A stretch of DNA of 64,000 bases, taken from Myxococcota bacterium (GTDB lineage: Bacteria; Myxococcota_A; UBA796; GCA-2862545). The stretch's first letter is position 1. Every line of letters starts with the position of its first letter. Below the pieces are notes generated by a model. It had not been told where the DNA came from. It searched no databases and worked only from the letters and a program-made list of their open reading frames with translations. This document shows positions 1-59,731 of this stretch, one piece after another. The position numbers and the translations under genes are program-made. The stretch is from positions 34,557-98,556 of the forward strand of contig JBCCQY010000009.1 of NCBI GenBank assembly GCA_039208735.1, given 5' to 3'.

Positions 1-1591
1 TGTCGTCAGGCGGTCCTGGAGGAGCTGAGCAAAGCAGGCGTTCCAACACCCAAAGGCCACGGGTTACCGTGTTGGGGCTGTCGGGATTCGAGGTGGCGGT
101 CATCCATGCGGCCGACCCTAAGAAGCCGGGACGCGCGTTGGGAACCGTGGTCCGAACCCAGCCATCATCGCCGCCCGGCCATTCCACGCGGTAGTGCGCG
201 GCAAGCGTTTCGTTGACCCAGCGTTCTTCGCTGCGCAGCATGTCGGTGAAGGTGATGCGGTCGGCAAAGAAGTCTTGGGTGAGGAGGCGCAGCTCTTGGC
301 TCATCGAGCTCCGAAGCGCTTCGTTGAACTCGGGGTAGACCACGACCGACGGTTGAACCCGTTGAAGCAAGCGTAGATCAAGCCACTGGCCCGCGAAGTT
401 GTTGATGAGGGCGTCGACCCGCACGTCGTCCAGCATGCGATCGGCCTCGGTCAACACGCCATCGTCGGTAGCCAGCGCGTCTTCGCTGGCGGCCACCAAG
501 AGGTCATCGTCCGGAATGGTTGACCACAAGAAGAACGACAGGCGGGAGGCGAGCTCGTAGCTCGTGAGACGGCCGAAGAGGCCGCCGGGGTCTTGCTCAG
601 CGCGGTACAGGAAGTTCGGGTTGAGCAGGATGACTTTAAAGGCATGCTGCATCGCCTGGGTCCATTCCAGACCTTCAGCGTCCGCTGTTTCAAACGCGGC
701 CTTCACAAAGGCCACATCCTCTTCGTCGAGTGCCCGGCGCCAGGCCCGGGTGGCGAACGATGAAAGGATGTCGTCGGTGCACGTCGCGCGCGTCTCCGGG
801 GTGCAATCAAACAACTGCGAGTAGGCCACGGTGGGCCCTGTGCGCGGGCTCGTGGGCCCCTGAATCCAATAGAGGAGCCAGCCGACATCGGCTTCTTCAG
901 GGTTGGTCAGTCGCCACACGAAGCGGTGGGGGCCAGGCTCGAGCGTCACTTCCGTGAACACTTCGGGGGGGGCGTCCGCGTTTGTCGAGGTGACCTCGAT
1001 GGTGTCCACCACCATGCCGTCGACCAGCAATTCAACCATCGCGGGGGTCGAAGACAACGAATACAGACGGCTGTCGATAATAAAGTTGCCGTCGTACAAT
1101 GTCGATTGGGTGACTTCGACCGAGCCTTCTTGAATAATGTAAGCCCGGTTGATCCGGTTTTGCACGTCGGGATCGGGCTCGTAGTAATAGTCGGGTGGCC
1201 CGTTGGGATCGACGTCTTGGTAGCCTTCGCCGAAGTAGGTGACCCCGGCGTCGGTGCCGTGAACCACGTCGTACTTCACCGTTTCTTCAAGGTCTCGACC
1301 GAAGTATTCGTCAAGCGCCGTATCGACCGCAATCTCGAGGCCGGCCAGGTGGGAGACGGTAACCGAGAGCGCATCGGCAATATTGTCGAGACCGTCGGTT
1401 GATTCATCCGTCGGAAGGGCCGAGGACGGCCTTGACTCGACGGTCGCAAGTAGATCGCGGAACGCATTGTCCAGTTCCGCGCGATTGAGACGATGGAGCG
1501 CCTTGGCCGGAACGGGCCCTGGCTCCTCTATGACTGGCCCTTCGTCTTTGGAGCCTGAACACGCGAGCACGAAACTCAAGAGCACCATCAC
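1..1591 (-). CDS. DUF1592/DUF1588/DUF1587/DUF1595 (PSD-domain) lipoprotein, 3'-partial (runs off the window start)
   Basis: Not in the ORF track because no stop lies in the window. Manual translation from GTG 1591 (GGAGG upstream): MMVLLSFVLAC...LHRLNRAELDNAFRDLL...FATRAWRR...ILLNPNFLYR...LTSYELASRLSFFLWSTIPDDDLL...NFAGQWL...RGLWVLERLLC. These are typical PSD-domain motifs. Confidence 0.9.
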   Translation of the reverse strand, partial: MMVLLSFVLACSGSKDEGPVIEEPGPVPAKALHRLNRAELDNAFRDLLATVESRPSSALPTDESTDGLDNIADALSVTVSHLAGLEIAVDTALDEYFGRDLEETVKYDVVHGTDAGVTYFGEGYQDVDPNGPPDYYYEPDPDVQNRINRAYIIQEGSVEVTQSTLYDGNFIIDSRLYSLSSTPAMVELLVDGMVVDTIEVTSTNADAPPEVFTEVTLEPGPHRFVWRLTNPEEADVGWLLYWIQGPTSPRTGPTVAYSQLFDCTPETRATCTDDILSSFATRAWRRALDEEDVAFVKAAFETADAEGLEWTQAMQHAFKVILLNPNFLYRAEQDPGGLFGRLTSYELASRLSFFLWSTIPDDDLLVAASEDALATDDGVLTEADRMLDDVRVDALINNFAGQWLDLRLLQRVQPSVVVYPEFNEALRSSMSQELRLLTQDFFADRITFTDMLRSEERWVNETLAAHYRVEWPGGDDGWVRTTVPNARPGFLGSAAWMTATSNPDSPNTVTRGLWVLERLLCSAPPGPPDD

Positions 1592-1786
1592 TCGACCTCC
1601 GTGCAACGCATTGAAACGAATGGGACCCTGACCTGCCAGGAAATTCCGGTCAAGAAGCGGTGCGTAAGGGGGTTCCAGCCGTCGGAGGCCGAACCTCGGC
1701 CCGTGACAAGTGGGCCTACCATTTGAGGCAATTCTGTGCTTCCATGGCAACAATGTTGTCCCCGAGGGGGGATCTTGGAGTGGCGG

Positions 1787-2353
1787 ATGTTGCTTTTGTG
1801 GGCGGGAATCCTGACGGCTGCGGCGGACCCAGGCTGGGTGATCGAGCCTTTGGCACCCGCAGCGGGGATCCGGCTGGCGCCGCAAGGCCAGGTCCAGTTT
1901 GACGTTTTGCTGCAGCCGCGATTCCGAAGGCAGACCAGTCGCTTCGAGGCCAACGGAACGGATGAATCTGTCGACACCACCGAACTCAACTTGGGCGGAG
2001 AGATTGCCGGTACCCTCCGCCTCGGTCTGCGCCCAACGCGGGGCCGGCCCACGCTGTCGTTAGGGGGAAGTGCGGGGTTGCGCCGAATCATTTTGTCTAG
2101 TGCGAGTGACCTTGTTGCGGCGCCGGATCCGTACACCACGTTCGATGCCCGGGCCTGGGTGGGTGCGGGGGCGATTCATCCGATCACCAAGCGGTGGTCC
2201 GTAGGGTTCGACATCGAGTTGGCCGGTTTGGAATGGCGTAGTTCCAACCAGCTCCGCTCGAGTTCCGCCCTGACCGTGATCTCAAACCCAAGTCGCACCA
2301 TCGACCTAAACCTGCTTTCAGGGGCGCATCTCTTTCTTTCCGTCCAACCCTGA
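1787..2353 (+). CDS. Secreted hypothetical protein, possibly a small outer-membrane beta-barrel
   Basis: GGAG precedes ATG 1787. Hydrophobic N-terminus MLLLWAGILTAAA, then alternating beta-strand patterns (WVGAGAIH, WSVGFDIEL). Confidence 0.55.
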   Translation: MLLLWAGILTAAADPGWVIEPLAPAAGIRLAPQGQVQFDVLLQPRFRRQTSRFEANGTDESVDTTELNLGGEIAGTLRLGLRPTRGRPTLSLGGSAGLRRIILSSASDLVAAPDPYTTFDARAWVGAGAIHPITKRWSVGFDIELAGLEWRSSNQLRSSSALTVISNPSRTIDLNLLSGAHLFLSVQP

Positions 2354-2359
2354 CGAGAC

Positions 2360-10040: not shown

Positions 10041-10522
10041 CGGGTGAGCCGGAGCACGTTCCAGGTGTTTGCACCATGATTGTGGAGGTGCAGCACCAGC
10101 GGGGCTCCGACCGCCGCGGCCTGCGGCACGGTGATCAACTCAGCGTAGGCGGCCGCCACTGACGGAATGGGGACGGTGAGGTCGAGCCACAGCACGCCGT
10201 CGACGCTGAAGGCCACATGGGCCTCGGCCTCTTCGAGGGCGGCGAGATCGTTGTGCCAAAACACGATCTCAACTTCGTCGCCGGCCTCGACCGGGGCCTG
10301 CAGCGGTTGCTCGAGCACGACGTAGTTGCAGATGCCGGTATCGATCTCAATGGTGGAGCCTTCCACCAAGACGCCTCCAAGTGGGCACTCGGTGGCGTCT
10401 TTTCGATGGTCGGGGAATGGGTCGTCCGCCACGGCGGCTTGCCGCCAACCGTCCATCGTTGCGAGTTCCATCGCCGGACGCCCTTCGCCCGCACAGCCGA
10501 CCCACCCCAACAGCAAGATCAT
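10022..10522 (-). CDS. Hypothetical lipoprotein
   Basis: MILLLGWVG-C at the N-terminus and a C-terminal HLHNHGANTW motif. ATGA overlap with the upstream gene. Confidence 0.8.
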   Translation of the reverse strand: MILLLGWVGCAGEGRPAMELATMDGWRQAAVADDPFPDHRKDATECPLGGVLVEGSTIEIDTGICNYVVLEQPLQAPVEAGDEVEIVFWHNDLAALEEAEAHVAFSVDGVLWLDLTVPIPSVAAAYAELITVPQAAAVGAPLVLHLHNHGANTWNVLRLTRQSDAR

Positions 10523-10938
10523 CGGGGCTTTACCAGAACGCTCTCGGCTCCGTTGAGCAAGATCGCCCGATCTTCACGTCGGTCCCCCGGCATTTGGGTC
10601 CAAAGCAAGATGGCCGCCCCGCCGGTTGCGGCGGCTTGGACCGCCAGCGGAACGGCGAAAAAGTTGCCTCGGTTCGCGAGTCGCACGGTGCCCCACACCT
10701 CAAGTGCCGTCAGGCCAGCGAAGCTGAAACGCAGCACATTTCGACCTAACCTACGACCCCGCACTCGCCTGCGGGCGTCACTCTTTGCCGCCAACGATCG
10801 GATCTCCCTCCAATCGATGGGTTGGCCGTTGGCGTCTTCGTACCGAGGGTGATCAACCTCATCAAGCGGAGGCACGAGCGGGTCGGAAGGGACCGGGGGA
10901 GCCGCCAGGGCCGCCACCGCAAGCAGGGCAGTGATCAC
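10519..10938 (-). CDS. Hypothetical membrane/secreted protein
   Basis: Signal MITALLAVAALA and two hydrophobic segments. Start and stop overlap the neighbouring genes. Confidence 0.75.
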   Translation of the reverse strand: MITALLAVAALAAPPVPSDPLVPPLDEVDHPRYEDANGQPIDWREIRSLAAKSDARRRVRGRRLGRNVLRFSFAGLTALEVWGTVRLANRGNFFAVPLAVQAAATGGAAILLWTQMPGDRREDRAILLNGAESVLVKPR

Positions 10939-11669
10939 CGGCGACGGACGCGCCGGGCCGCGGCCACCGCAAACAGGGCCAGCACACCGAACGCCGAGCC
11001 CGCGGGCGCCGTGCTGCAGCTGCTGGCGAACACCCGGTAGTAGTCGGAGGTCAGGTTGTATTGGGCGTCAAACAAGAGATCTGCCGTAGCTTCACCGCCC
11101 AAGCCCATCATGGTCAGCGACACGATGTAGGTGCCTTCGTCGGGAACCTGGAAGTCAGGCTGCCAGTTCTCCGAGGAGAAGACTGGGTTACGGGCGCCCT
11201 GGCGCCTCACCGTCCACTCCATGGCCCGCAGGCACCGGGGTTGGTCCACCGCAGAGCGATTCGAAATTTCGTAGTTGAGTCCACCCTTGTCAACGATGTC
11301 GAATTCAGGGCGGGGCGCTCCGCAGATCGTGTAGAACCCAGAGAGTCGGGTCTTGTTGAGGGGCTCGTCGATTTCGATGTCGCCATCAGGACCTTGGACC
11401 ACCAGGTCCTTCAATTCGACCGAGATGGTGTAGAGACCTTCGTCGGCATAGGTGTAGTCGATGGCATCGCCCGTCAGCACGGTGCCATCGCCCATCAACC
11501 ACTGGGTTTCGGTCCACGCACCGATGGGGTCACCACCAGAGGTGGCAATCTCCACTTCGCAGGCCACCGTGATGGGGCCGACGTCGGCCGTGGGGCCTTC
11601 TGGCGTGCACGTCACATCGAAAAACGGGCTCGTTTGCGCAAGGGCGGAGGAAACGAGGAGCGGCCACAC
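10935..11669 (-). CDS. PKD-domain surface protein with a MYXO-CTERM-type tail
   Basis: GTG 11669 after GAGGTGG. WLMGDG...YTYADEGLYTISV PKD motif. C-terminus SSCSTAP, then a TM segment, then RRVRRR. Confidence 0.8.
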   Translation of the reverse strand: MWPLLVSSALAQTSPFFDVTCTPEGPTADVGPITVACEVEIATSGGDPIGAWTETQWLMGDGTVLTGDAIDYTYADEGLYTISVELKDLVVQGPDGDIEIDEPLNKTRLSGFYTICGAPRPEFDIVDKGGLNYEISNRSAVDQPRCLRAMEWTVRRQGARNPVFSSENWQPDFQVPDEGTYIVSLTMMGLGGEATADLLFDAQYNLTSDYYRVFASSCSTAPAGSAFGVLALFAVAAARRVRRR

Positions 11670-17859: not shown

Positions 17860-18291
17860 CTAGGGCGTTTCGGGAGATTTCGTGTCGTTCTCAGGCGCGT
17901 TCGCGTCGCGTTCTTGCAGGACCACTGCACCATCTTCGGTCCGTCGCTGCGGGGATTTGCCGATGACCTGAATACCGGTGGTTGCGGCCACGACGACCTT
18001 CTCTGCCTTGGACAGGTCGAGCGTCAAGAGATCGGTCTTCTCTTCGGGCACCGCGATCTTCGTCGTGATCTTGAACGGATCTTGGCTGCCGGTGACTTCG
18101 AACGTGTGAACGCCTTCGATCAGCGCCGTCTCAACAGGCAGCTTGCCCAGTCGCCAGCCGTCGACGCGCACCGTGTCACCTTCACGGCCTGGAAGTTCAA
18201 TTTTCACCTTGACTTCACGGTACTCCGTCTTCACGATCTCGACCTCTGGGGTCGGGTCCGCCACGGCGGTCAGGGTCCACATCCACCACAT
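17860..18291 (-). CDS. PEGA-like domain secreted protein
   Basis: MWWMWTLTAVA signal and VRVDGWRLGKLPVETALIEGVHTFEV PEGA-like motif. Confidence 0.7.
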   Translation of the reverse strand: MWWMWTLTAVADPTPEVEIVKTEYREVKVKIELPGREGDTVRVDGWRLGKLPVETALIEGVHTFEVTGSQDPFKITTKIAVPEEKTDLLTLDLSKAEKVVVAATTGIQVIGKSPQRRTEDGAVVLQERDANAPENDTKSPETP

Positions 18292-18530: not shown

Positions 18531-19100
18531 TCAGTAGCTCACGGTGAAGTCAACGTTGGAGGTGCTCATCGTACCTTCGATTTCGAACAGCATCGTGTCG
18601 CCATCGCCACAGTCGGTGTCCTCGAATTCTCCTGAGAACTCAAATGCAATGCAAGACTCGGACGCGGCCGTGAAGGTGAGACCACCACTGACCCCTGCGA
18701 ACCCGTCGCTCTCTTTCGAGCTGCACCGTCGCATGGGGTTGTACTCGGCGAAGATGGCCACATCCGCCGCGTCGCCACCGAACGACCCGGGAATTGGAAA
18801 GAACGCCCCTGGCTCGATGGTCCGGTCCACACTGGTCGCAAACGACGTGAAGAGCCTTGCGTTTACCGTTCCCTCCGTAGGCCCGGGAAGGCGAGCGTCG
18901 TACTGGAAGAATGAGACTCCCTTGCCATAAGGAACGGTGAGCGAACCCTCGGTGTTGGGCAAGAGGAACGCTTCACCTTCGAGAACAAAGGAGCCCTCGT
19001 CGAGGCAGTTACCATTGGCCGCTCCGCCGCCGCCTCCTCCACCTGCCGCATCACATGCTCCCAAGATGCTAGCTGAGACCACGATCATTCCAAGTCGCAT
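18531..19100 (-). CDS. Hypothetical lipoprotein
   Basis: GGAGGAGG RBS, MRLGMIVVSASILGA-C lipobox and a poly-Gly linker. Confidence 0.8.
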   Translation of the reverse strand: MRLGMIVVSASILGACDAAGGGGGGGAANGNCLDEGSFVLEGEAFLLPNTEGSLTVPYGKGVSFFQYDARLPGPTEGTVNARLFTSFATSVDRTIEPGAFFPIPGSFGGDAADVAIFAEYNPMRRCSSKESDGFAGVSGGLTFTAASESCIAFEFSGEFEDTDCGDGDTMLFEIEGTMSTSNVDFTVSY

Positions 19101-19224: not shown

Positions 19225-20250
19225 CTACCAGTAGACGATGGCCAGTCCGTTGTCTTCGAGCACCGAAACCGACATCAAGCGGCCGGTTGCATCAAGGGTG
19301 AAGGCGGTCCGGGGAGAGGTGGGGAGGTCACAAACCCCTGCGACCGCTTGCCAAGGCCCATCCCCCTCTCGTCGCAGGATGCGGGGAACGTCGCCGGACA
19401 ACAGTTCGACGTCCCCTTGCGACACCGTGACGTGCCCGTCGGTCCAGGCGGGGCGGATGGAGAACCACAACGCATCGTTCGGCTTTTCCCCTTCGTCTGG
19501 CGGCGGAGGAGGCTCGCGGGGCACGACGCTGGGCGGAGGGCCTTCGGTGACCCTCCCCTGGCGTGTGTCGAGCCAAAGGCGCCGTTCGGTACTCTCGCCA
19601 ATATCGACGACGACCTCGATTCGATCGCCGTCATGGCTCGTCAGCGTGAGGCGCTCATACGGGACGGGGTTGCGAAGGCCAGGGACGTTGAGATCGACGC
19701 GATCGACCTCGAAGGGCTTGACCGGCTCGAGTCCGGTGTACACGGCGGATGCCACCCAGGTGAGCGCGTCATCCCCAACGTCGCCACAGGGGGCCGAGGC
19801 CACCGCCTCCACCAGCGCGGGCTCGAGGCTGCAGGTCCATGCGAAAGCCTCGCGCGCTTCGTTGCCGCGGTAGTCCTCGACGGTGCTTGGGTCGAAAGGA
19901 AAGACGGCATCGGGCGGTGGACCGTCGAGCACTTGCAGGTCCCAGGCGTGGCACATCTCGTGTCGGAGGGTGGTGACTTGCCAGTCTGCGTCGTCCTCAG
20001 TGATGCGAACGTCGCGCAGCACGGCCCGGTAACGCCCTCCAAAACGCGCAGGATTTTCGCGGACCCGAATCCGACCTACACACACCCTGGCCGGAGCTAC
20101 GGCTTCGGTAAAGTCGGCCCATACGGCCTGGAGGCGTTCGACGACGGGGTCATCGGCGTCGCGTCCGCCGATGCGCAACCCTTCGTCGTCGGCCGTACAC
20201 ACGCCGCGGCACCCCGCGAGCCATCCCACACCAAGGAGGCCCCACCACAT
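19225..20250 (-). CDS. Lipoprotein with an HExxH zincin metallopeptidase motif
   Basis: MWWGLLGVGWLAG-C; TLRHEMCHAWD; downstream REAFA. Confidence 0.75.
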   Translation of the reverse strand: MWWGLLGVGWLAGCRGVCTADDEGLRIGGRDADDPVVERLQAVWADFTEAVAPARVCVGRIRVRENPARFGGRYRAVLRDVRITEDDADWQVTTLRHEMCHAWDLQVLDGPPPDAVFPFDPSTVEDYRGNEAREAFAWTCSLEPALVEAVASAPCGDVGDDALTWVASAVYTGLEPVKPFEVDRVDLNVPGLRNPVPYERLTLTSHDGDRIEVVVDIGESTERRLWLDTRQGRVTEGPPPSVVPREPPPPPDEGEKPNDALWFSIRPAWTDGHVTVSQGDVELLSGDVPRILRREGDGPWQAVAGVCDLPTSPRTAFTLDATGRLMSVSVLEDNGLAIVYW

Positions 20251-26127: not shown

Positions 26128-27731
26128 TGCACCACCAATCGCGGATGTTGGAGGAACGCCGATAACAGCCATGCCCAGGCGGTTTCGGGGGCTCGGTCGT
26201 GGGCCAGGGTCTCGAGCAACGCCAGATCCGCATCGATCTGGGGGTCGTCGGGCTCCACCACCTCGGCCAGGATGCGGAGATGCCAGTCCACCAACTGGGC
26301 GCGGGCCGAAGCTCCCGATGTGTCGAAGCCCTGCGCGAACCAGCTTCGAGGACCTTCGAACTCCCGTCTGAGTACGGTCGCCGCGGCCTCCTCGGCGAGC
26401 CAGCGCCATCCAAGCTCGCGACTGGGCAGGGGCCCTCGATCCGGAGGGACGAGCCGCCACCCTTCGACGCCTCCCATGCCTTGGTTGAGCCCAAAGCGAT
26501 CGGTGGTCACCAGGTCCACCGTGCCAAACCCCGGGTTGGGCAGCGCGGTGAACGGGACCTGAACCAGATGATCAAGGGTGCGCACCCACTGGCGCGGACG
26601 CAGCAGGCTCGGGGGGGCGTGAGGGGACTCGGGAGCGAAGGCTTCATGAGTCGCGATGGCCAGCAACAGGGCTTTGGCATCGTGGCCACGGGTCCGGAAG
26701 TCCTCGGCAAGGTCTTGCACGAAGTCGCCTTGCACGTCTGCCCAGTCGAGCCCGACGAGGTAGCCGAAGAAGCGCTGCACCATGCACGTGGCAAATCGAG
26801 GATCTTGGGCGATCGCTTCACCGAGAGACCCGAGCCCGGAAGTGCCTCGCCCGTAGTAGCCCGGAGCCGGCAACACGCCGTCGGGCAGCGTCAGCGCTGG
26901 GTCGTACAGCTCGAGGGGATAGCAAAACCCTTCACGACAGTCGGTCCGGTAGCCGTCCCGCACCTCACCATCGAGAATGTAGCGCCGAAACCCTTCGAAG
27001 TTGGCCGCCAGGGGATCGAGCGACGCATGGCACGATTGGCAGGCGGGATCGTTCTGCAGGGCGTCGTCCTGCTGCGTGGGTTGAACGGTGCCCGCTTCGG
27101 GTCGCTGGCTGAAGTCGTCACACAGGAAGGCCTCGGCGACGATGGCCGCGCGGCTCCGTTGATGGTTGGTCGGCGCGATGGGATGCCGTTGCATCAAACT
27201 GCTGCTTGAGAGTACCCCGGCCGCGGGTCGACCATCCGTCCAGCGGCTGACTTGCCAGCCAGGGTCCGACTCGTTGACGGGCGGACCGAACGCCCGGCTC
27301 ACCACCCGATCCGCGAGCACCTCGGGGGTGGTCACGATGGCGGTGAAGGGCTGCTCCGTCTGGACGATATGGGCGATAAGCCGGAGTGGAGCGTCGTCGA
27401 GGCGCTCGATGACGGTCGCCGGAGGCACCGATGCCAAAGGACCCAGCGAAGGAACGTGCGTCTTCGCGTCGTGACGCACGCCCAACGCCTCTCCCATCAA
27501 GTCCGCCACGACCTCTGCCAACGCTGGATCGGGACGCCACGCCCGCACCTCGGCCCTCCAATCCGCCCCGTCATGGACCCGGCGTACTTCCTCGGGAGTC
27601 GGCGGATGCTCGCGCAACGCCAGCGACGCCCGCATCAAACGCTGTAGCGGAGTGGCCGCGCCCACGACCTCAGGAACGTTCGGGGGTTCCACCACAGGGG
27701 GTTCCGAACACGCAAGCAGGAAGAACAGCAT
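26124..27731 (-). CDS. DUF1588/DUF1585-like heme-binding lipoprotein (partner of the DUF1501 gene)
   Basis: GGAGGA RBS, MLFFLLA-C, AGVLSS, FLCDD, CQSCHASLDPL, PRFATCMV. Confidence 0.85.
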   Translation of the reverse strand: MLFFLLACSEPPVVEPPNVPEVVGAATPLQRLMRASLALREHPPTPEEVRRVHDGADWRAEVRAWRPDPALAEVVADLMGEALGVRHDAKTHVPSLGPLASVPPATVIERLDDAPLRLIAHIVQTEQPFTAIVTTPEVLADRVVSRAFGPPVNESDPGWQVSRWTDGRPAAGVLSSSSLMQRHPIAPTNHQRSRAAIVAEAFLCDDFSQRPEAGTVQPTQQDDALQNDPACQSCHASLDPLAANFEGFRRYILDGEVRDGYRTDCREGFCYPLELYDPALTLPDGVLPAPGYYGRGTSGLGSLGEAIAQDPRFATCMVQRFFGYLVGLDWADVQGDFVQDLAEDFRTRGHDAKALLLAIATHEAFAPESPHAPPSLLRPRQWVRTLDHLVQVPFTALPNPGFGTVDLVTTDRFGLNQGMGGVEGWRLVPPDRGPLPSRELGWRWLAEEAAATVLRREFEGPRSWFAQGFDTSGASARAQLVDWHLRILAEVVEPDDPQIDADLALLETLAHDRAPETAWAWLLSAFLQHPRLVVQ

Positions 27732-27769
27732 CGTCCTCCGTTGTAGCGCCTCCGTTCGCGACCCGCTGG

Positions 27770-31748: not shown

Positions 31749-31812
31749 GCCCGGAAGGGTTCACCGACGACATGTGCCCTCTGCTAGAAGGGCACCCAAA
31801 TTGGGAGGGATT

Positions 31813-32625
31813 GTGTTGCTTGCATGGATCGCTGCTGCCTTTGCCCAGACCCCCGACTTTGCCGAAGCCGTCATTCCCGCGGATGACGACTCGGTGAAGG
31901 TCGAGGTGGACGAGGCCGAAACCAAACTCACCGCTGACCTCGGCTTCACCTACGTGAGCGGCAACGCGGTGCTCGTGGCATTGAACACCGGTTTGATGTT
32001 TAGCCACCGCTGGAAGAAGAATCGGTTTGTGCTTCCGGCGACGGCGAACCTCGGCCAGTCCATTGCGGACGCCGATGGGAGTGGTACCCTCGACGATGTC
32101 GAACGCGAAGCGGGGCTGACTGAAAATGCTCGTCGAATCATCGTCGAACCCCGCTACGACCGGTTCCTTAGCGACCGCGACAGTCTGTTCTTGATCGTTG
32201 GGTTCCTTCATGACCCGTTCATTGGCTACCAGTTCCGCCCTCACCAGGCGATTGGTTACTCGCGATTGCTCGTGAAGGATGACAAGCGTGAGGTTCGGGT
32301 GGAAGTCGGCGTCGACTACGCCCAGGAATACTTCGTTGAGGGACTGGACCCACGCCGCCAGAATGTCTTCGCGGGCCGCGTGCAGGGTGTGTTCGCCCAG
32401 CAGTTCAACGAAAGTGTGGGGTTCAGCAATAAGCTCGAAGTCTTCGAAAATCTGATCGATCTTTCGGACCTTCGTTTGCTCAACACCGCGACGTTCACTT
32501 CGTCGATCAACTCAAACCTAAAGTTGAACCTGTCGCACCGGTTGCTCTTCGACAACGTTCCGGTCGAAGGTTTCCGTAAGACCGACCAAACCACCATGGT
32601 CACCTTGGTCGCGACGCTCATCTGA
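31813..32625 (+). CDS. DUF481 family outer-membrane beta-barrel
   Basis: GFTYVSGN, RYDRFL, DPFIG, FDNVPVEGFRKTD; short signal MLLAWIAAAFA. Confidence 0.85.
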   Translation: MLLAWIAAAFAQTPDFAEAVIPADDDSVKVEVDEAETKLTADLGFTYVSGNAVLVALNTGLMFSHRWKKNRFVLPATANLGQSIADADGSGTLDDVEREAGLTENARRIIVEPRYDRFLSDRDSLFLIVGFLHDPFIGYQFRPHQAIGYSRLLVKDDKREVRVEVGVDYAQEYFVEGLDPRRQNVFAGRVQGVFAQQFNESVGFSNKLEVFENLIDLSDLRLLNTATFTSSINSNLKLNLSHRLLFDNVPVEGFRKTDQTTMVTLVATLI

Positions 32626-32670
32626 CCTGGACAATTGTCGCCGGCGCGAGCCAGCAAGGAGGCAGGCAAG

Positions 32671-35391
32671 ATGCTCATACCCATCACTGTGATCGCCTCG
32701 GTCACAGCTCTGGCGGCCGACTTTACGGCCGACTTTGATTGCAGCAATGACGCGACGTTCGGTCAACCCGCTGGACAGAACGGGTGGCAGTCCGTTTGGG
32801 ACCAGGATGCCTGGTCCACCCAATTCAATGATGGCGTGTCCCCCCTCACCGACAGTGGTGTCGGAGCGTTTGGTGGGGCGGTCGACGGATATACGAATTT
32901 CCTCGTCACCGGGCACCCTTTGGTGACGGATGTGGCCATCACGGCCGACATTCGATCGACGGACGACGACTTTGCGGGGTTGGTGGCGCGCTACGCAGAC
33001 CCCTCGAGCTATTACACGTGCGGCTTCACCCGCCACCGGCTGTCTTCGTGTACCGAAGGTGGTGCGACCGTCGATCCGGGGCTCCGCATTCAGCGGGTCG
33101 ATGAAAGCGAGACGTGCGCCAACGACTACGTTGTCGCGTCCTCGGTCGAGTTCGTGCCCGAGGCGGGCGAAACCTACGCGACGCGCTTGCAAGTCCGTGA
33201 AGTCAACCAGGGCACGTTGGTCCTGTGTCGGGTGGACGCGAACCAAAATGGCCTGGGTGACTTCGGCGACATCCTGCTCACCTATCAGGATGACACGCCG
33301 CTGCCTGCGGGCCTGTATGGACTTGCGAGCTACGACAACGGCAGCAGCAACGGGGACGTCGAGTTCGATAACGTCGAGATCGATGTGTTCGGGGCCGACC
33401 GCGACGATGATGGTCTGCTCGACGTGGTCGAAGACGCCATCGGGACCGACCCCGATTCGGCGGACAGTGATGACGATGGCGTGCCGGATGCGCTCGAAGT
33501 GGGCATGCCCGCGTTCCCATTCGATGCCGATAATGACGGCACGATCGACGCCAATCAGCCCGATAGCGATAACGACGGCTGGCCCGACGGCGACGAAGCG
33601 GGGCTCGGCGAGTCCTTGCAGGACTCGGACTGTGACGGCACGCCGGATGTGCGTGACGAAGACAGCGACAACGATGGCACAGACGACGGTGCCGACAATT
33701 GCCCCACGCGCTTCAATCCTTTGCAGCTCGACCTGGATGGCAACGGTGTAGGCAACGCCTGCGAAGACGGTGTGCGGGCCGATCTTGCGTCGGAAGCCGA
33801 CTTGGATGGCCTGTCGAACGAGGAAGAACGCCAGCTCGGCACAAACCCCAACCTCGCCGACACCGATGGAGACGGTCTGAACGATGGGGCTGAGGTCCGC
33901 CTGTACGGCACCGACCCGCTCGTGGCAGACACCGATGGCGACGGCATCGACGACCAAGCTGAAATCGGCGTGTCCGATCCGAACACGGCCGATACCGATG
34001 GCGATGGCCTCGACGATGGCACGGAAGTGGCGCTCGGTACCGACCCTCGTGCGACCGACAGCGACGGCGACGGGGTATCCGATGCGGCTGAACTCGAAGC
34101 CGGCACCGACCCGCTCGTGTCCGACGACGATGGCAAGAGCCCCGATACGGACGGGGACGGCCTGTCGGACGCCCTTGAAGCGCTGCTCGGAACGGACCCT
34201 GAAGTCCTGGACACCGATGGTGACGGGATCGTGGATGGAAGCGAAGTCGCCGCCGGGCTCGAGCCGCTCGTGGCGGATACCGACGGGGACGGGATTGATG
34301 ACGGTGCCGAGGCATTTGAGGGTCTCAGTCCCCTCGATCCGGATACCGACGGCGATGGCCTGACCGACGGTGAAGAGGCCCTGGTTCTGGGCACGGACCC
34401 TCTCAACGCCGATGGCGACGATGATGGGCTGTCGGATGGGATCGAGGTTCGCGTCTTTGGCACGGACCCCCTGCGTGGCGACACCGATGGTGATGGCCTT
34501 GAAGACGGTCTCGAACTCCAGCTCAACACCCTGCCACTCGTTGCGGATACCGATGGTGACGGGCTCGATGACGGCGAAGAGCTGGTGGCGAACACCGAGC
34601 CTCGAAACCCCGACACGGACTTTGGCGGAACCATTGATGGGGCTGAAGTCGAGGATGGCACAAATCCGCTGGTGGGCGGTGACGATCTCAACGACGTCGA
34701 CAGCGATGGCGATGGCCTAAGCGATTCAGAAGAAGCGGCGTTGGGTACGGATCCCAAGTCCGACGATTCCGACCTGGACGGCCTGTTGGATGGGTTTGAG
34801 CTGCAGGTGAGCCGCACCGACCCCCTCGCGGAAGACACCGACGGCGACGGCGTCAACGATGCCGACGAACTCTCGGGGTCGACGAACCCCCGGCGGGCCG
34901 ACAGCGATGGCGATGGGGTCGACGATGGTCGCGAAGCCGCCGAGGGTGCGGATCCGAACGACGCGGACAGCGACGACGATGGTGTGCCTGACGGGGTTGA
35001 ACTCGATGTGTTCGGCACCAGCCCCACGGCGACCGATTCAGACGGTGATGGCCTGGATGACGGGGTTGAACTCGACGTGCACGGCACGGATCCGGCGGTG
35101 GCAGACACCGATGGCGACGGCCTGTCCGACAGTGAAGAGATCAATACGCACCGCACGAATCCTCTGCTGGCGGACACCGACGGGGGCGGGGTCTCGGACG
35201 GTGACGAAATCATCGCCAAGACCAACCCCCTTGACCCGAGCGACGACGTGCCGCTGCCCGAGGGGCCTCCCGGCGAGTACCTGGGTGGTGCATGTGCGGG
35301 GTGCACCTCGGGCAGCCCCACGCAGGCCGGTTGGGGCCTTGTGGCGGTCCTTTTCTTGATCGGCGCCCGACGCCGTGAGGTGCAATCATGA
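32671..35391 (+). CDS. Large Ca-binding repeat surface protein: lectin/TSP_C-like N-domain, about 27 DxDGDG repeats, MYXO-CTERM
   Basis: Signal peptide; STDDDFAGLVARY motif; repeats D[TS]DGDG[LIV]xDGxE...GTDP; C-terminus GACAGC, then TM, then RRR. Confidence 0.9.
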   Translation: MLIPITVIASVTALAADFTADFDCSNDATFGQPAGQNGWQSVWDQDAWSTQFNDGVSPLTDSGVGAFGGAVDGYTNFLVTGHPLVTDVAITADIRSTDDDFAGLVARYADPSSYYTCGFTRHRLSSCTEGGATVDPGLRIQRVDESETCANDYVVASSVEFVPEAGETYATRLQVREVNQGTLVLCRVDANQNGLGDFGDILLTYQDDTPLPAGLYGLASYDNGSSNGDVEFDNVEIDVFGADRDDDGLLDVVEDAIGTDPDSADSDDDGVPDALEVGMPAFPFDADNDGTIDANQPDSDNDGWPDGDEAGLGESLQDSDCDGTPDVRDEDSDNDGTDDGADNCPTRFNPLQLDLDGNGVGNACEDGVRADLASEADLDGLSNEEERQLGTNPNLADTDGDGLNDGAEVRLYGTDPLVADTDGDGIDDQAEIGVSDPNTADTDGDGLDDGTEVALGTDPRATDSDGDGVSDAAELEAGTDPLVSDDDGKSPDTDGDGLSDALEALLGTDPEVLDTDGDGIVDGSEVAAGLEPLVADTDGDGIDDGAEAFEGLSPLDPDTDGDGLTDGEEALVLGTDPLNADGDDDGLSDGIEVRVFGTDPLRGDTDGDGLEDGLELQLNTLPLVADTDGDGLDDGEELVANTEPRNPDTDFGGTIDGAEVEDGTNPLVGGDDLNDVDSDGDGLSDSEEAALGTDPKSDDSDLDGLLDGFELQVSRTDPLAEDTDGDGVNDADELSGSTNPRRADSDGDGVDDGREAAEGADPNDADSDDDGVPDGVELDVFGTSPTATDSDGDGLDDGVELDVHGTDPAVADTDGDGLSDSEEINTHRTNPLLADTDGGGVSDGDEIIAKTNPLDPSDDVPLPEGPPGEYLGGACAGCTSGSPTQAGWGLVAVLFLIGARRREVQS
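33394..35250 (+). repeat. Coding tandem repeats of about 22-23 aa (66-69 bp), Ca-binding type
   Basis: Recurrent gacaccga(t/c)ggcga(t/c)gg motif; about 27 units counted by eye. Confidence 0.9.
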
Positions 35392-37007
35392 TCTCGTTGG
35401 GATGGTTCATCGGGACTTCCGCCATGGCGCAGACCGTGTCGGGAGGCGAAATCCCCGAGTTGAATGCGCAGCGGTTCCGGCCGGCGATCGACGCCGCTCG
35501 GACCTTCTGGCTCGACGATGCCCGCATGCCTCTCGAAGGTGCGCAGGGTCGCGTGCTGCTGTCCTACCACCACAATCCGCTCGTCTACCGCCAGGGCGAC
35601 GAGGAAACCCGCATCGTTCGCAACGTCCTGCAGGCCAACGCGATTGGCGGTTGGGGCATTGGACCGGTTCGCCTCGGTCTCGACGTGCCGATTTATCTGC
35701 TGGCGGACGGCGAGGTTTCAGACCCCGAAGCGGGCATCGGTGACATCGGCCTCGACGGTCGCGTCACCATCTTCGGAGAGGGTGCGCCGGTCGATGCCCC
35801 CGTCGACATCGGCCTACAGGGACGTCTGTTTGTTCCAACCGCGACGGTCAATACCGCACTGGGCGCCCCGGATCTCGCAGGCCAGATCGCCGTTGTCGCC
35901 AGCGCCGACGTGGGCAATCTGTTGCTGTTGGCCAATGCGGGCACGCGCATCAATCCCACCGAAGTCCTTGAGAACATCGAGTTGAACGATGCATTCGAGT
36001 ACCGGTTCGGAGGAGCCTATGCGTTCAACGACCGCGGCGGCATTTCGCTCGAGTTTGCGGGACTGCTCTACTACTCGGCCGAGATTGCGAATCGGGCGGG
36101 ATCGCCGTTTGAAGGCCTTGTTGGGGGCTACGGCCGCCTGACCGACAACCTCGAGCTACGCGGTGCGATTGGTCGCGGTCTGACGGCGGGGGTCGGGTCG
36201 CCCGATCTGCGCATCATTGCAGGCCTCGCCTTGCTCCCAGGTTCGCCGAAGACGACCGAAGAGCCGGAGCCCGTCGATTCCGATGGCGATGGCGTGGTCG
36301 ATTCAAAGGACGGTTGTCCCGACGAAGCGGAAGATCTGGATACCTACCAGGACGACGACGGCTGCCCAGATCCCAATACGAGCGTCGCGGTTCGCGTGTT
36401 GGGCCCCAATGAGCGTCCGCTTCGTCGAGCCACCCTGACGCGGACTCCGCCTGGCGAAGATGCTGAGCCGGTCGTTACGAAGGGCCCCCAGCATGCGCTG
36501 GTCTTGGAGCCCGGAACGTGGACCTTCGACGTCACGGCGCCTGGCTACAAGCCCGTCACCGTCACCCAAGATGTGGTGAATGGGCCGGCCGAGGTCCTCA
36601 ATGTGACTCTCGAACCCAGTAGCCAGCGCATCGTGGTCGATCAGGACCGCATCGAGCTTGCCGAGACGGTGCAGTTCCAGACAGGCTCGGACCGTTTGTT
36701 GAAGGAATCCCTGCCCCTGCTCGACGAAATCGCAGGCATCCTGGACAAGACCCCTGACATCATCAAGGTCTCGATCGAAGGCCACACCGACAATCGGGGT
36801 GATGAGGCGGCCAACCAGAGGTTGTCGGCGCGTCGTGCCCAGACCGTCATGACCTACCTTGTGAATTCCGGCATCGCTAAGGAACGTTTGCAGAGCGCAG
36901 GCTTTGGAGAATCCAAGCCTCTCGACGAACGGAATGTGGACGAGGCCTGGGAGAAGAACCGCCGCGTTGAGATCCGCATCCTCGAGTGGGCGGACGACGA
37001 AGAGTAG
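35388..37007 (+). CDS. TraB-like outer-membrane protein (beta-barrel, TSP3 repeats, carboxypeptidase-regulatory-like domain, OmpA domain)
   Basis: LNAQRFRPA N-terminus, DSDGDGVVDSKDGCP, IEGHTD, NQRLSARRA, NRRVE. ATGA overlap with the upstream gene. Confidence 0.9.
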   Translation: MISLGWFIGTSAMAQTVSGGEIPELNAQRFRPAIDAARTFWLDDARMPLEGAQGRVLLSYHHNPLVYRQGDEETRIVRNVLQANAIGGWGIGPVRLGLDVPIYLLADGEVSDPEAGIGDIGLDGRVTIFGEGAPVDAPVDIGLQGRLFVPTATVNTALGAPDLAGQIAVVASADVGNLLLLANAGTRINPTEVLENIELNDAFEYRFGGAYAFNDRGGISLEFAGLLYYSAEIANRAGSPFEGLVGGYGRLTDNLELRGAIGRGLTAGVGSPDLRIIAGLALLPGSPKTTEEPEPVDSDGDGVVDSKDGCPDEAEDLDTYQDDDGCPDPNTSVAVRVLGPNERPLRRATLTRTPPGEDAEPVVTKGPQHALVLEPGTWTFDVTAPGYKPVTVTQDVVNGPAEVLNVTLEPSSQRIVVDQDRIELAETVQFQTGSDRLLKESLPLLDEIAGILDKTPDIIKVSIEGHTDNRGDEAANQRLSARRAQTVMTYLVNSGIAKERLQSAGFGESKPLDERNVDEAWEKNRRVEIRILEWADDEE

Positions 37008-45053: not shown

Positions 45054-46418
45054 TCAGAAGCGCTCGACCGAGGTGCAGACGGCGCCCGGTTTTCCCGTTG
45101 CCGAAAGCCAGGTCGAAGGATGCTCCGTCAGCTCGGGTGCGTTGCGCAGTGCATCGAAACCGCCTTCCATGGAATGGACTTGCGCTTCGCCTTCCGTCCA
45201 TCCCGAGGTTGGGGTTGGATCTGAGGCGGGGTCCAGTTCCGGCAGCGCAACCGTCCGCGAGAACGCGCCCACGAGGGTCCATGTCGTGGCCTCTTGGGGA
45301 TTGCCGACGGTGATGGTCATGAGGTTGCCCCCACGGCCATCGCAGACCCAGTCTTTTGGCAAGGGAAGTTCGAAGACGGTCTTCGACAGATCGAAGGTCC
45401 AGCCCTCCGGAACGACGGGAAGGGCGTCGCGCTCCCGCTGCAACCCTGCCACTTGCCCGCCGCCGGGCACGCTCCGGACTGCATCGATGCGCTCGACACG
45501 GGCGGCTACCCCGGTCTCTTGCACGCCAATGCGGACCTGGATCTCGTCGTGGAACGCGGCATCGGCGGGCGAGCGAAGGCCCGAGATGCCTTGGTCCGAG
45601 AGGAGTTGGAACTTGGCCAAGCCTTGGGGGAACGGCCGTCCGCCTCGACGGGCCTCGACGCTAAGGTCGACCGAACTATCGGGTCCCTGGTGGAAGTACT
45701 GAACGTCGTACTCGCCGTAATCTTCGAGCCAAGGCCCCATCTGCACGGTGCCCGACAGATCGGGGGGCATCCCCTGCAGCGAGGATCCGGCCACAAACGC
45801 GATGGCCAGGGGTTCGAGGGTTGGGCTTAGGGCCCAGGCAAAGGCATCGACCGTGGTGCCGGTGTGACACGAGGACGAGAGTGGAATGGTCTGATTGAGT
45901 GGAAAGGGCGCATTTGCGAGGGCTATGCAGGCAGACTGCAGTTCCCAGATCGCGAAGTCGACGTCGGGACTGTCGGGGATCTGAAGCGTGTAGGACCCCA
46001 CGTCGACCGGCGCTTGGACTGCCGAGTTGGGGAAGGTGAGACGGTCCCCATCTCGCACGCCTCGGATTGTGGTGAGTCGGGGGCCCGAAAAAGCGTCCAC
46101 GACCTCGGTCACAAACCCCTCGATCGGTACGTCCTCGATCGTGAGTTCCGCATCGGTCGTCACCTCGGTGCGCACAAAGGTGCCGTCTGCGTCCGCGATC
46201 ATCAGCCGGACTTCGGGCAACAGACGGTCTTGGCCAAGCCGCACGGTGACCTGACCAAACTTCGGTTTGGGTGGAGGGGGCTTAGGCACGGTGCCCGTAT
46301 CGACGGGGCGCGTGTCGGCAGGGGGGGCGGGTGGTGGAGGATTGCCCTCGGTGGTTGGCACCTCATCCCCGCTACACGCAAGGGCTCCCCACCCCAATCC
46401 GACCCATCGACCCAACAT
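45054..46418 (-). CDS. Hypothetical lipoprotein
   Basis: GGAGG RBS, MLGRWVGLGWGALA-C, Pro-rich tether. Confidence 0.8.
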   Translation of the reverse strand: MLGRWVGLGWGALACSGDEVPTTEGNPPPPAPPADTRPVDTGTVPKPPPPKPKFGQVTVRLGQDRLLPEVRLMIADADGTFVRTEVTTDAELTIEDVPIEGFVTEVVDAFSGPRLTTIRGVRDGDRLTFPNSAVQAPVDVGSYTLQIPDSPDVDFAIWELQSACIALANAPFPLNQTIPLSSSCHTGTTVDAFAWALSPTLEPLAIAFVAGSSLQGMPPDLSGTVQMGPWLEDYGEYDVQYFHQGPDSSVDLSVEARRGGRPFPQGLAKFQLLSDQGISGLRSPADAAFHDEIQVRIGVQETGVAARVERIDAVRSVPGGGQVAGLQRERDALPVVPEGWTFDLSKTVFELPLPKDWVCDGRGGNLMTITVGNPQEATTWTLVGAFSRTVALPELDPASDPTPTSGWTEGEAQVHSMEGGFDALRNAPELTEHPSTWLSATGKPGAVCTSVERF

Positions 46419-52293: not shown

Positions 52294-53120
52294 CAGTCGG
52301 TGACGTCGTAGCTCGCGGGCATCGTGTAGCCTGCGGCGTCCCACCCCCCGGGGGCCTTCCAGGCGCCTTCATCGGGCTCGAAGCACGCGTAGGGAACGTC
52401 GCGGTGGGGCAGCTTCTCTTCGGTGGGGAAGCTGTAATGCCACCACTCTCGCCAGTAGTTCTTGAAGCCCTCGGCATGCATGGTCTCGCGAAGGAGCATG
52501 CGGTTTTTGTAGGCCTCGCCCTTGGCGTTGCGGGTGTGACTCGCCTCGGAAAGCGTGTCCCATGGGGTGCCCATGTCGATCTCGGTCCCGGTTTCGGCAT
52601 CGACGATCGACAGATCGATGGTGTTGCCCTTGTTATGGCCCGAACGACGTGCGATGTAGCCCCCGTCGAGCAGGTGCACTTGGTCCGTGCGCTTGGCCCA
52701 GGCCACCATGCCCAACGTGCCGCGCAGCGGTCGGTAGGCGTCGTAGATGAGCAGGGACTTGCCCTGGGCTTCCAGCTTCGCTTGCACCCGTTTCAAGGCT
52801 TCGGTGGGCTCCTGACGTAGCCAGGCGCCGGGCACGCCGTAGCCGGGCAACGGGGCTTCCGTGAAGTTGTCGGGCGTGTGGTAGCGGACGTCAAACCGTG
52901 CGTTGGGCAAGGCGACTCGTAGGTCGACCCACCCCTTGGGGGGCGGCCGCTGGTGCGTGGCGAGGTCGGGGGTCGGAGGCGCCGGGGCTGGTGGGGGCTC
53001 GGCCACCGGAGGAGGTGCCTCTGCGGCCGGAGGCGTGCCCGGCACCATCGTGGGTGGATCGGGCTCTTTGGCCCCACCGAAGCTTCCGCACCCGCACCAC
53101 AACCAAATCATGCACCACAT
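52278..53120 (-). CDS. D-Ala-D-Ala dipeptidase (VanX/DdpX, peptidase M15D), probable lipoprotein
   Basis: YDAYRP, SGHNKGNTIDL, DMGT, EWWHY; Pro-rich N-terminal tether. Confidence 0.93.
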   Translation of the reverse strand: MWCMIWLWCGCGSFGGAKEPDPPTMVPGTPPAAEAPPPVAEPPPAPAPPTPDLATHQRPPPKGWVDLRVALPNARFDVRYHTPDNFTEAPLPGYGVPGAWLRQEPTEALKRVQAKLEAQGKSLLIYDAYRPLRGTLGMVAWAKRTDQVHLLDGGYIARRSGHNKGNTIDLSIVDAETGTEIDMGTPWDTLSEASHTRNAKGEAYKNRMLLRETMHAEGFKNYWREWWHYSFPTEEKLPHRDVPYACFEPDEGAWKAPGGWDAAGYTMPASYDVTDCQPKK

Positions 53121-57814: not shown

Positions 57815-58249
57815 ATGATTGCCTTGTCCCTGCTGTTGGCTTGTGATCAGAGCGCGCTCGAAGCGGGCGCAACCGATTCGGGCGCCGTCACGTACACCCC
57901 CGAGGTGGAACTGCTGTCGCCTGCCCCTGACTCGACCTTCGAGATTGGCGACCGAATCGACTTTGAGTTCTCGGTCTGGGATGGCCCAGACGACATCTCG
58001 GACCTTGCCCTCACCTGGACATTGTCGGGATTGAGGGGACAGCCCTCGTTGAGCGACTTGCGCCTCGATGACCCAGGACGCAACCACGCAACGGCCAGCT
58101 GGCGGACGGCTGAAGCGGGGCAATGGGAGGTGGCCCTGGTCGCGTCCGACCCCGCCCATCGCATCGGTGAAGCCTTTGTCACGTTTTCGGTTGATGACCG
58201 CGTTGTCGACGACCTCGGCCAGCGCTGGATTGTCGAGGGTGTGGAGTAG
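57815..58249 (+). CDS. Ig-like domain lipoprotein
   Basis: GGAGGA RBS, MIALSLLLA-C, PEVELLSP...VASDP Ig pattern. Confidence 0.8.
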   Translation: MIALSLLLACDQSALEAGATDSGAVTYTPEVELLSPAPDSTFEIGDRIDFEFSVWDGPDDISDLALTWTLSGLRGQPSLSDLRLDDPGRNHATASWRTAEAGQWEVALVASDPAHRIGEAFVTFSVDDRVVDDLGQRWIVEGVE

Positions 58250-58321
58250 CGTGCCCTCCCAAGCGCAGGGTGGCCGATTGGTGCGTTACGATGCGGGCTG
58301 GAGGTCGCGCTGACACCGATC

Positions 58322-59731
58322 GTGCTCTTGCCTCAGATCGTGCTGGCCACTCCAGCGTTTCACGGTCCCCCCGACGATGTGGCCCGCGCCACCCGGGCCT
58401 GGGAAGCGGCCAAGGTCTGCTCGGGCCGTGAAGGCTATGCGGCCCGCGACGTCGAGATTCGACATCGGACGATTCCTGGCGGTTTCTTGGGCATCGCCCA
58501 CACGACCTCCGACGGCGAACTCGTACGCATCGACCTCGACAAGACGAGTGGGCACTACCGCGAAGTGCTGGTGCATGAGGTTGCCCACGCGTGGGTCTCC
58601 GATGGACCTTTGGCCTTGGTGGAAGGCGCGGCCGAACTTCTGGCCGATTGCATCGTCGCCCAAGACCCGGGCCTGGCCACGCTGCAGTACGACGATGGCC
58701 GCGACCTTACGGGACTGCCCGACCTTCGCACGTGGGCGCCGCCCGACCAACACGAGCCTGAATCGCTGGGTGCCATCCGTACCGACGCCTACATCGGCGC
58801 GTCCCGATTGCTGCGCACGGTGGCCGAGGTGCTCGATCAGTCGCAGCTCTGGCCGGCCGAAGGGCTGAGCTGGACGAACTTCGAGGCTGCGCTCAACGCC
58901 GCGGGACCCCGCGGCCAAGCCATCCTCGCTGCCCTGCACGGAGGCCCGGTGGCCCAGCGGGAAGCCCTGTCGGACCCCGACCTCGATGGCGTGCCAACCT
59001 TGGCTGAAACCCTTGCGGGCACGAACCCCCATCGCTTCGACACCGATGGCGACGGCTGGTGGGATGGGGCTCGCAATGTGCCCGACGATGCTGTTGCGAT
59101 TCCGCTGGATGGAACTCCGGTCTGCGCAGGGCATCGTCCGGTTCGCGGACAGGCCCTCGACGTGTTGACGGGAGGGAACCTGCGCGGCGCGGACGTACCG
59201 CGGGTGGTGGGACGCTCGAGTGCGGCAGGTGCAACGTTCAAGGCGGAAAGTCGGCGTGCCACGGGGTGGGGGCATGCCACGGCCCTCGTCGGCGGGGGAC
59301 GATCGGTTCTGCTGCAGCTCGACCACAAAGCCGACCATTCAACGGGAGCTGCCTGGGCGCGCATTCGGGGGCGGGACCTCGTTGCCGACCCGGGTTGCCG
59401 GTCCAACGCCCAGCTCACGGTCTGGGCTCATCACCGCAGCGTTGAACGCGACGTGGAACCCTTCTTCGCGGCCCTGCACGGGGCCCGAGATGCCCTGGTG
59501 GAGCGCTTCGGACCAAGCCCTTCGCGCATCGTGGTGCTCCTGGGCGGGACCTCGTCGACGGTGAAAGGCAACGTCGTGGTTCTCGGACCCCACGAACTGG
59601 ACCGAGCCCGCCGTACCGGCGATTGGCGCTCGTTGGCCCTCCTTGCCGTTTCGGTGCAGCACCTGTGGGGCCGTGGGGAGCCGGATTGGACGGGGGCCGA
59701 GGCGCTCGCACGGTCGTTTGGCGCTCGTTAA
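58322..59731 (+). CDS. Secreted gluzincin-like metallopeptidase with Ca-binding repeats
   Basis: VLVHEVAHAW...LVEGAAE; DPDLDGVP and DTDGDGWWDG. Confidence 0.75.
   Translation: MLLPQIVLATPAFHGPPDDVARATRAWEAAKVCSGREGYAARDVEIRHRTIPGGFLGIAHTTSDGELVRIDLDKTSGHYREVLVHEVAHAWVSDGPLALVEGAAELLADCIVAQDPGLATLQYDDGRDLTGLPDLRTWAPPDQHEPESLGAIRTDAYIGASRLLRTVAEVLDQSQLWPAEGLSWTNFEAALNAAGPRGQAILAALHGGPVAQREALSDPDLDGVPTLAETLAGTNPHRFDTDGDGWWDGARNVPDDAVAIPLDGTPVCAGHRPVRGQALDVLTGGNLRGADVPRVVGRSSAAGATFKAESRRATGWGHATALVGGGRSVLLQLDHKADHSTGAAWARIRGRDLVADPGCRSNAQLTVWAHHRSVERDVEPFFAALHGARDALVERFGPSPSRIVVLLGGTSSTVKGNVVVLGPHELDRARRTGDWRSLALLAVSVQHLWGRGEPDWTGAEALARSFGAR

Follow-up and report, generated by a model that had tools for sequence, protein, structure and literature searches.

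Signals of the general secretory (Sec) system that are cleaved by signal peptidase I (SPase I) mostly measure 16–30 amino acids (aa) in length, with a charged n-region (PMC8804277), and lipoprotein signals of the SPase II type run from a basic n-region through a hydrophobic stretch to a lipobox (PMC8048626, PMC9360617; what we take from the literature, here and below, comes from parts of the cited sources). In eukaryotes and archaea, where an unformylated Met supplies positive charge, the n-region can be free of Lys and Arg (K/R) (PMC9287161). Here we analyze N-terminal leaders in a 64,000-nucleotide (nt) stretch of a Myxococcota genome (the window; contig JBCCQY010000009.1, positions 34,557 to 98,556), in the rest of that genome and in its relatives. 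An earlier note on this DNA had listed twelve ultrashort leaders without a basic residue and proposed a non-canonical targeting or processing route. The trait is real, genome-wide and linked to a lineage. We infer a mechanism in which these leaders would be minimal signals for a single, ordinary Sec machinery whose lineage-wide SecY and SecA changes would relax its proof-reading, a reading to which we give a probability of about 0.55.

The leaders resemble both kinds of Sec signal. Like SPase II signals, one type has a hydrophobic run to a [LVI][ASTVI][GAS]C-like lipobox, in a genome that encodes Lgt, LspA, Lnt and LolA; unlike them, 265 of 953 are at most 11 residues long with no basic n-region, and the Cys can follow as few as 7 residues. 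A second type, borne by outer-membrane barrels and OmpA-domain proteins, shares with SPase I signals the apolar core, a small-x-Ala end and a mature start that is polar or acidic, whereas 334 of 878 of these Ala-x-Ala (AxA) leaders are at most 14 residues long and K/R-free. The eukaryotic and archaeal parallel fails on formylation: the genome retains fmt and two def genes, so lost formylation does not explain the missing charge, and we rejected it as a charge source after finding fmt and def in 5/5 genomes.

Twelve short uncharged leaders in the window

All twelve listed starts and N-terminal sequences are present in the window (SD, Shine-Dalgarno sequence):

27708..27731, minus strand: 7-residue uncharged leader and lipobox Cys, 535-aa DUF1588/DUF1585 protein (Pfam); GGAGG before ATG
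57815..57844, plus strand: 9-residue uncharged leader and Cys, 144-aa protein without a Pfam family; first start in frame, GGAGG
10493..10522, minus strand: 9-residue uncharged leader and Cys, 166-aa protein; first start in frame, ATGA overlap with the upstream stop, no SD
1559..1591, minus strand: 10-residue uncharged leader and Cys, DUF1592/1595/1587/1588 protein that leaves the window; GGAGG before GTG-ATG, four upstream TTG alternatives
20209..20250, minus strand: 13-residue uncharged leader and Cys, 341-aa protein; first start in frame, 2 nt after the upstream stop
53088..53120, minus strand: 10-residue uncharged leader and Cys, D-Ala-D-Ala dipeptidase (M15), start disputed; no SD, alternative starts on both sides
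11637..11669, minus strand: 11-residue uncharged AxA leader, PKD-domain protein; GAGGT before GTG
31813..31845, plus strand: 11-residue uncharged AxA leader, DUF481/YdiY-like outer-membrane protein; GGAGG, public call equal in length (270 aa)
10903..10938, minus strand: 12-residue uncharged AxA leader, 139-aa protein; first start in frame, GTGA overlap, our caller chose a downstream start
18259..18291, minus strand: 11-residue Trp-rich uncharged AxA leader, 143-aa protein; GGAGG before ATG
28407..28445, plus strand: 13-residue uncharged AxA leader, 139-aa protein; GGAG before ATG
35388..35429, plus strand: 14-residue uncharged AxA leader, OmpA-domain protein; in-frame stop 3 codons upstream, ATGA overlap, GAGGT

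The five starts held to be fixed (10522, 10938, 20250, 35388 and 57815) indeed have no in-frame ATG, GTG or TTG upstream, and those at 10522, 10938 and 35388 overlap the upstream stop as ATGA or GTGA. At 27731, 1591, 11669, 31813, 18291 and 28407 in-frame starts do lie upstream, yet GGAG(G) or GAGGT precedes the short start. Our gene caller agreed on 10 of the 12 starts, the exceptions being 10938 and 53120. No twin-arginine (Tat) motif was found in the twelve leaders (0/12 contain Arg), and they do not look like prepilin (SPase III) signals, which are short, charged and cut ahead of the hydrophobic helix (PMC9360617): all twelve begin apolar at residue 1 and lead into a polar mature region.

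The least secure start is that at 53120. An SD is missing, an ATG lies 22 codons upstream, and both our caller and the public collection start the gene at 53048. The public call for this M15 dipeptidase (window 52278-53120, minus strand) is thus 256 aa against 280 aa, and the putative lipoprotein leader is missing from it. Its three closest homologues among the matches listed have a lipobox Cys after 9–10 uncharged residues; the 120 of 688 homologues that were listed divide into 25 with a short K/R-free leader, 3 with a short leader containing K/R, 41 with a longer one and 51 that lack a lipobox. A promoter scan around 53120 gave no hit, and a look-up of window 26001-36000 listed no RNA holder.

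As a window-wide pattern the earlier list stands for its short uncharged leaders and was selective in leaving out Arg-bearing ones: the lipobox leaders at 19100 and 46418 and, at 26127, one with a twin-Arg motif. Two further uncharged leaders and the two Arg-bearing lipobox leaders are:

1787..1825, plus strand: additional 13-residue uncharged leader, weak autotransporter-barrel match, outside the earlier list
32671..32715, plus strand: additional 15-residue uncharged AxA leader, TSP3-repeat protein; AGGAGG before ATG
19053..19100, minus strand: counter-example, lipobox leader of 15 residues, Arg at position 2
46374..46418, minus strand: counter-example, lipobox leader of 14 residues, Arg at position 4

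A genome-wide class of lipoprotein leaders

Short uncharged leaders recur across the whole genome. The window lies on contig C9 of assembly G000 (9.4 Mb, 64% GC, 92.7% complete, 6.2% contaminated), in which we called genes with a hexamer coding model and a learned SD/start model that score ribosome-binding site, start codon and coding potential. In the resulting set of 7333 called genes (at least 90 aa, closed 5′ frame), a K/R-blind lipobox pattern found 953 leaders with a median of 13 residues before the Cys. The genome-wide measurement of start-to-Cys distance and charge that the earlier note had called for puts 326 of the 953 at 11 residues or fewer, 265 of them without K/R. This short uncharged class makes up about 28% of lipoproteins, a minority next to canonical leaders. 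The K/R-free share is 92/97 at 5–8 residues, 173/229 at 9–11, 79/299 at 12–14 and 28/255 at 15–19. An initial lipobox pattern was dropped because it excluded charge near the Cys and so forced the outcome. The K/R-blind pattern run after internal Met set the chance level: matches at 11 residues or fewer followed 3/6043 internal Met, against 326/7333 called starts. Cys is also in excess at positions 8–18 downstream of called starts.

Mis-called starts with true basic n-regions upstream, or contaminating contigs, would be the simplest source of such a class, and some in-frame start does lie upstream of 206/326 short leaders. However, 120/326 are first in frame, 75 of these also without an upstream CTG or ATH, and several directly follow an in-frame stop. 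Regardless of the start call, an in-frame stop lies within 15 codons of the Cys in 49, and 22 have no K/R from stop to Cys. An SD precedes 78% of short-leader genes versus 62% of other genes. Of the 227 contigs that carry lipoproteins, 137 have short uncharged leaders, and 89 of these 137 have canonical ones too; this spread led us to reject contamination as the source of the short leaders.

Leader length forms a single continuous distribution. Within 23 of 84 lipoprotein paralogue families, leaders that are short and uncharged occur alongside longer charged ones; in the family of the 27731 protein, leaders of 7–8 and of 12–16 residues stand side by side. Among short leaders Leu is most frequent at −3 (159/326) and Gly or Ser at +2 (131/326), positions that the pattern itself sets loosely. 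Trp makes up 9.7% of short leaders, 3.9% of long leaders and 1.8% of the proteome. The best 6-residue hydrophobicity window scores 2.57 in short leaders, below the 2.85 of long ones. The 20 residues after short leaders have a mean charge of −2.5 and are not more acidic than those after long leaders (−2.5 vs −3.0).

Charge enters at a sharp length. Among SD-supported lipoproteins, K/R occurs in 4–15% of leaders of 7–10 residues, in 60% at 11 and in at least 85% from 14. Because the pattern allows Arg at position 2 in short leaders, this step is not forced by it. In charged leaders the distance from the last K/R to the Cys is below 8 residues in only 17/500. The step is compatible with a minimum length of apolar core, reckoned from Met1, or with active exclusion of charge from a leader that would have to sink into the bilayer for its Cys to reach Lgt and LspA.

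Genes without an SD show a signal of their own. Among 2604 such genes a TAnnnT box often ends 6 nt ahead of the start codon (114 cases at spacing 6 vs 2–43 at other spacings; window example at 13552, minus strand), which suggests leaderless mRNAs. The box precedes 5/17 short leaders of relative G019. A tie between short leaders and leaderless mRNA was rejected for G000, where a −10-like box precedes 2.5% of short and 2.7% of long leaders.

Short leaders on exported cargo

Short leaders of the AxA type have an h-region and small residues at −3 and −1. Of 878 AxA-type leaders, 372 have at most 14 residues and 334 of the 372 are K/R-free, with a pattern that is noisier than the lipobox one (null 49/5957). 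Their cargo includes proteins that need passage across the inner membrane: TonB-dependent receptors, the DUF481 barrel and OmpA-domain proteins. Among 22 TonB-dependent receptor matches, no in-frame start precedes the called one in 9, and by eye 8 of these 9 have K/R-free leaders of 11–17 residues; one 11-residue leader starts 3 codons past an in-frame stop. Homologues of the DUF481 protein at 31813 have a K/R-free leader of at most 14 residues in 54/69 cases, by a crude pattern that often ends about 2 residues early. Their leader sequence is not conserved, and leader shape retained under full sequence turnover is as expected of selection on a signal. In the two distant homologues, at 26% identity, the leaders are long and basic. 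On this indirect evidence the short leaders are likely to be export signals. Longer leaders persist in the same genome: BamA has a canonical one of 26 residues with two Arg, and LolA an uncharged one of 21.

A trait of one order

Short uncharged leaders concentrate in the order to which the genome belongs. In a SecY tree this order is a single clade (support 100), in a class separate from Archangium and Polyangiaceae, and close homologues of window proteins carry the labels Myxococcota or Deltaproteobacteria; the SecY of one genome from the same phylum is identical to that of a record labelled Myxococcota. Relatives were sampled at 56–200 kb per genome with the same pipeline and codon model; the comparators were four sister-order genomes and one from another family of the phylum, with no M. 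xanthus and no named Myxococcia or Polyangia among them. Pooled lipoprotein leaders are short and uncharged in 34/79 cases in order relatives and 15/54 in G000 subsamples, against 2/69 outside the order (1/44 in the sister orders, 1/25 in the other family). Fisher's test gives p = 2e-7, a value that is overstated since kin are not independent. The claim that these leaders are far shorter than those of ordinary relatives thus holds against the sister orders, whose median is 18.5 residues versus 13 in G000.

Within the order the frequency varies. Leaders of at most 11 residues account for 17/17 in G019, 8/12 in G030, 6/13 in G021 and 3/14 in G013. BamA leaders are variable too, down to 13 uncharged residues in G122, and are by eye mostly canonical in sister orders. 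Outside the class, one 10-residue uncharged AxA leader appeared in G126 (samples L250-L259), whose SecY has Met187.

A single Sec machinery

The gene inventory is that of an ordinary Sec system. G000 and the single-contig relative G013 each have a single SecA and a single SecY, and no accessory Sec copy, as a second SecA or SecY match, was found in G000 (92.7% complete) or G013. G000 encodes Ffh, FtsY, YidC, fmt, two def and one LolA; LepB genes are present, and there are four S26, four Lgt and two LspA matches, with two Lnt matches over the cut-off. A further copy of Ffh or YidC did not turn up. A separate, non-canonical targeting or processing route is not supported by these genes, nor by the continuous length distribution, the canonical BamA leader and the paralogues that switch leader types.

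The Lgt paralogues (C68, C13, C133 and C64; loci L047-L058) have Tyr, Phe or Leu at the His of the E. coli HGGL motif (His103). In G006, G013 and G019 lgt lies next to lspA, an arrangement seemingly missing in G000; the missing lgt there may be an assembly gap. The weakest S26 match (C31:43163-44000) is a 122-aa protein adjoining a 154-aa protein with a His-Cys motif, a pair that presumably represents nickel superoxide dismutase and its maturation peptidase.

Lineage-specific changes in SecY and SecA

The lineage-specific Sec changes that the earlier note expected do exist: both SecY and SecA carry substitutions that mark the order. We aligned 80 SecY sequences against E. coli (18 order genomes, three named in-clade records and 59 others). 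Position 187 is Ala or Ser in 18/18 order genomes and the three named records, and in 0/59 of the others, which have Ile (45), Met (7), Thr (5) or Val (2). In 93 close SecY homologues the motif was matched in 88, all with Ala or Ser. I187A/S is one of eight order-marking columns, which also include A79V/F, T168A/S and F192T (L029-L033, L190-L202); these three may be compensating packing changes around transmembrane segments TM2b, TM4 and TM5. In SecA, position 372 is Tyr in 8/8 order sequences and Leu or Val in 6/6 sister-order sequences and E. coli, and L372Y is one of seven order-marking columns. A SecA signal-groove acidic patch was set aside as not discriminating: it falls in an E. coli insertion missing from order and outgroup alike.

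Both sites lie close to known suppressors. I187 belongs to the Ile ring of SecY, with prlA alleles at I191, I278 and I408 (PMC2171872). In E. coli, translocation rises by log2 2.91 for I278A, 2.82 for I408A, 2.45 for I191S and 1.44 for I86S (PMC13537251 supplement). Small residues at ring positions 86, 191, 278 and 408 thus raise translocation, which we count in favor of loosening by I187A/S. SecA A373, adjoining 372, counts as a Prl site and lies where Stem and alpha8 meet, in the parts of bioRxiv 2021.08.31.458331 that we draw on, which leave 372 unmentioned. The order's changes are like PrlA (SecY) and PrlD (SecA) suppressors in placing a small residue for a pore-ring Ile and in altering SecA beside Stem A373 (PMC2171872, PMC3164448, PMC13537251, bioRxiv 2021.08.31.458331). 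Unlike those alleles, I187A/S and L372Y are natural and lineage-wide; within the portions of these sources consulted they are not known Prl alleles and are absent from the tested variants listed.

Proposed minimal signals for an ordinary translocase

These real 7–14 residue K/R-free leaders are likely to act as minimal Sec signals, entering one ordinary SecA-SecYEG and being processed by ordinary LepB or Lgt/LspA, with translocase changes that would relax proof-reading (probability about 0.55). Each leader would lack an n-region and consist of an h-region followed by the lipobox or AxA, Met1 serving as the first apolar residue. Too short for a bilayer-spanning helix, the leader would lodge in the lateral gate and have its N-terminus pulled into the membrane; the near-absence of K/R below 11 residues would follow because the N-terminus is drawn in. 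The acidic early mature region would supply orientation. SecY I187A/S and SecA L372Y would relax proof-reading in a permissive rather than causal way, and short leaders would then drift to differing frequencies in different families.

Several observations weigh against this reading. The sole 187 variant among those listed, I187M, gains only log2 0.47, and F64Y, which is class-wide in this lineage, shows no gain (−0.37; F192S, 0.28) (PMC13537251 supplement). The SecY and SecA changes have a single origin, and their association with the trait therefore counts as one event. Despite A187 and Y372, G022 shows 0/9 short lipoprotein leaders, G020/G026 (S187) have 0/3 and G006 has 1/11. Ala or Ser at 187 occurs in other lineages, in 18/148 representative fragments from a search biased towards finding them; some of these are nearest to alphaproteobacterial sequences, and one is from Planctomycetota, the sole non-order name from the cluster look-up. 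With eight SecY and seven SecA order-marking columns, each of the two changes may simply mark the order neutrally. In G000 the remaining five ring residues are unchanged, as are the Prl hotspots Y134, H484, A488, A507 and A373.

In a second account the leaders are real Sec signals acceptable to any bacterial translocase, the lineage has drifted short, and the SecY and SecA changes are neutral markers. Of the signal's parts the apolar core is essential, while the basic n-region improves efficiency (PMC9360617). G022 combines both changes with no short leaders in its sample, a sporadic short uncharged leader occurs outside the class in G126, and the order-marking columns are many. Against it, such leaders are nearly absent from sister orders without the changes, and Ala or Ser at SecY 187 from all 59 other sequences. 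We consider this account possible, though on balance doubtful. Ordinary Sec routing, with the tuned and untuned versions taken together, is probable.

A bolder form of the tuned version gets tentative standing. I187A/S and Stem L372Y would together make an order-wide natural Prl-type translocase for which a basic n-region is dispensable. The 7–10 residue, charge-excluding leaders, with their N-terminus sunk into the membrane, would be a second, minimal code for export, serving hundreds of proteins in each genome and transferable to E. coli by two substitutions.

Entry by another path fits the data less well. The signal recognition particle (SRP), or YidC, could catch leaders co-translationally, with the formyl group kept on Met1, giving a wholly uncharged entry apart from the SecA-dependent route. 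Ffh, FtsY, YidC and fmt are encoded, SRP binding blocks deformylation (PMC5454389), and the sharp loss of K/R below 11 residues together with Trp and Leu richness suits full burial. SRP prefers more hydrophobic signals. The lower hydrophobicity of short leaders runs in the wrong direction for that preference, no extra Ffh or YidC copy accompanies them, and the cargo includes large barrels that normally use SecA, which makes this path unlikely.

Leaders that often stay unprocessed, as short uncleaved anchors or with an unlipidated Cys, are less probable again. A 7-residue helix cannot span the bilayer, and the signal on which Lgt and Lsp work is embedded in it (PMC8048626); the Tyr or Phe at His103 in Lgt paralogues points the same way. 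Yet the residues at −3 and +2 are lipobox-like, within the latitude of the pattern, paralogue families alternate short and canonical leaders, and outer-membrane barrels have to leave the inner membrane. Mis-called starts or contaminating contigs are the least credible source, largely refuted by the stop-bounded cases and by agreement on short leaders among DUF481 homologues called by other pipelines, despite the disputed start at 53120, the 6% contamination and a 10-residue case in G140 that, with 24 upstream starts, resembles a miscall.

Minimal signals of this kind would place hundreds of natural leaders under the textbook minimum for a bacterial signal peptide, making the purpose of n-region charge and helix length testable. 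They bear on how Lgt/LspA and LepB reach a cleavage site 7–11 residues from the start, and the two candidate translocase changes can be transferred to E. coli or to a cell-free SecYEG assay. About a quarter of this organism's lipoproteins would escape rules that demand a minimum length or a basic n-region, and the leader can be lost entirely from a gene call, as at 53120. Our literature search, with most subscription journals and the secretome-survey and bioRxiv supplements outside its coverage, returned no paper on genome-wide ultrashort uncharged leaders in Myxococcota, and the examined text of PMC11495043 does not mention them.

Other observations

At 24841-27731 (minus strand), the gene for the DUF1588/DUF1585 lipoprotein with the 7-residue leader lies directly upstream of that for a DUF1501 protein with a twin-Arg leader. 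G000 also encodes a selenocysteine tRNA (tRNA-Sec).

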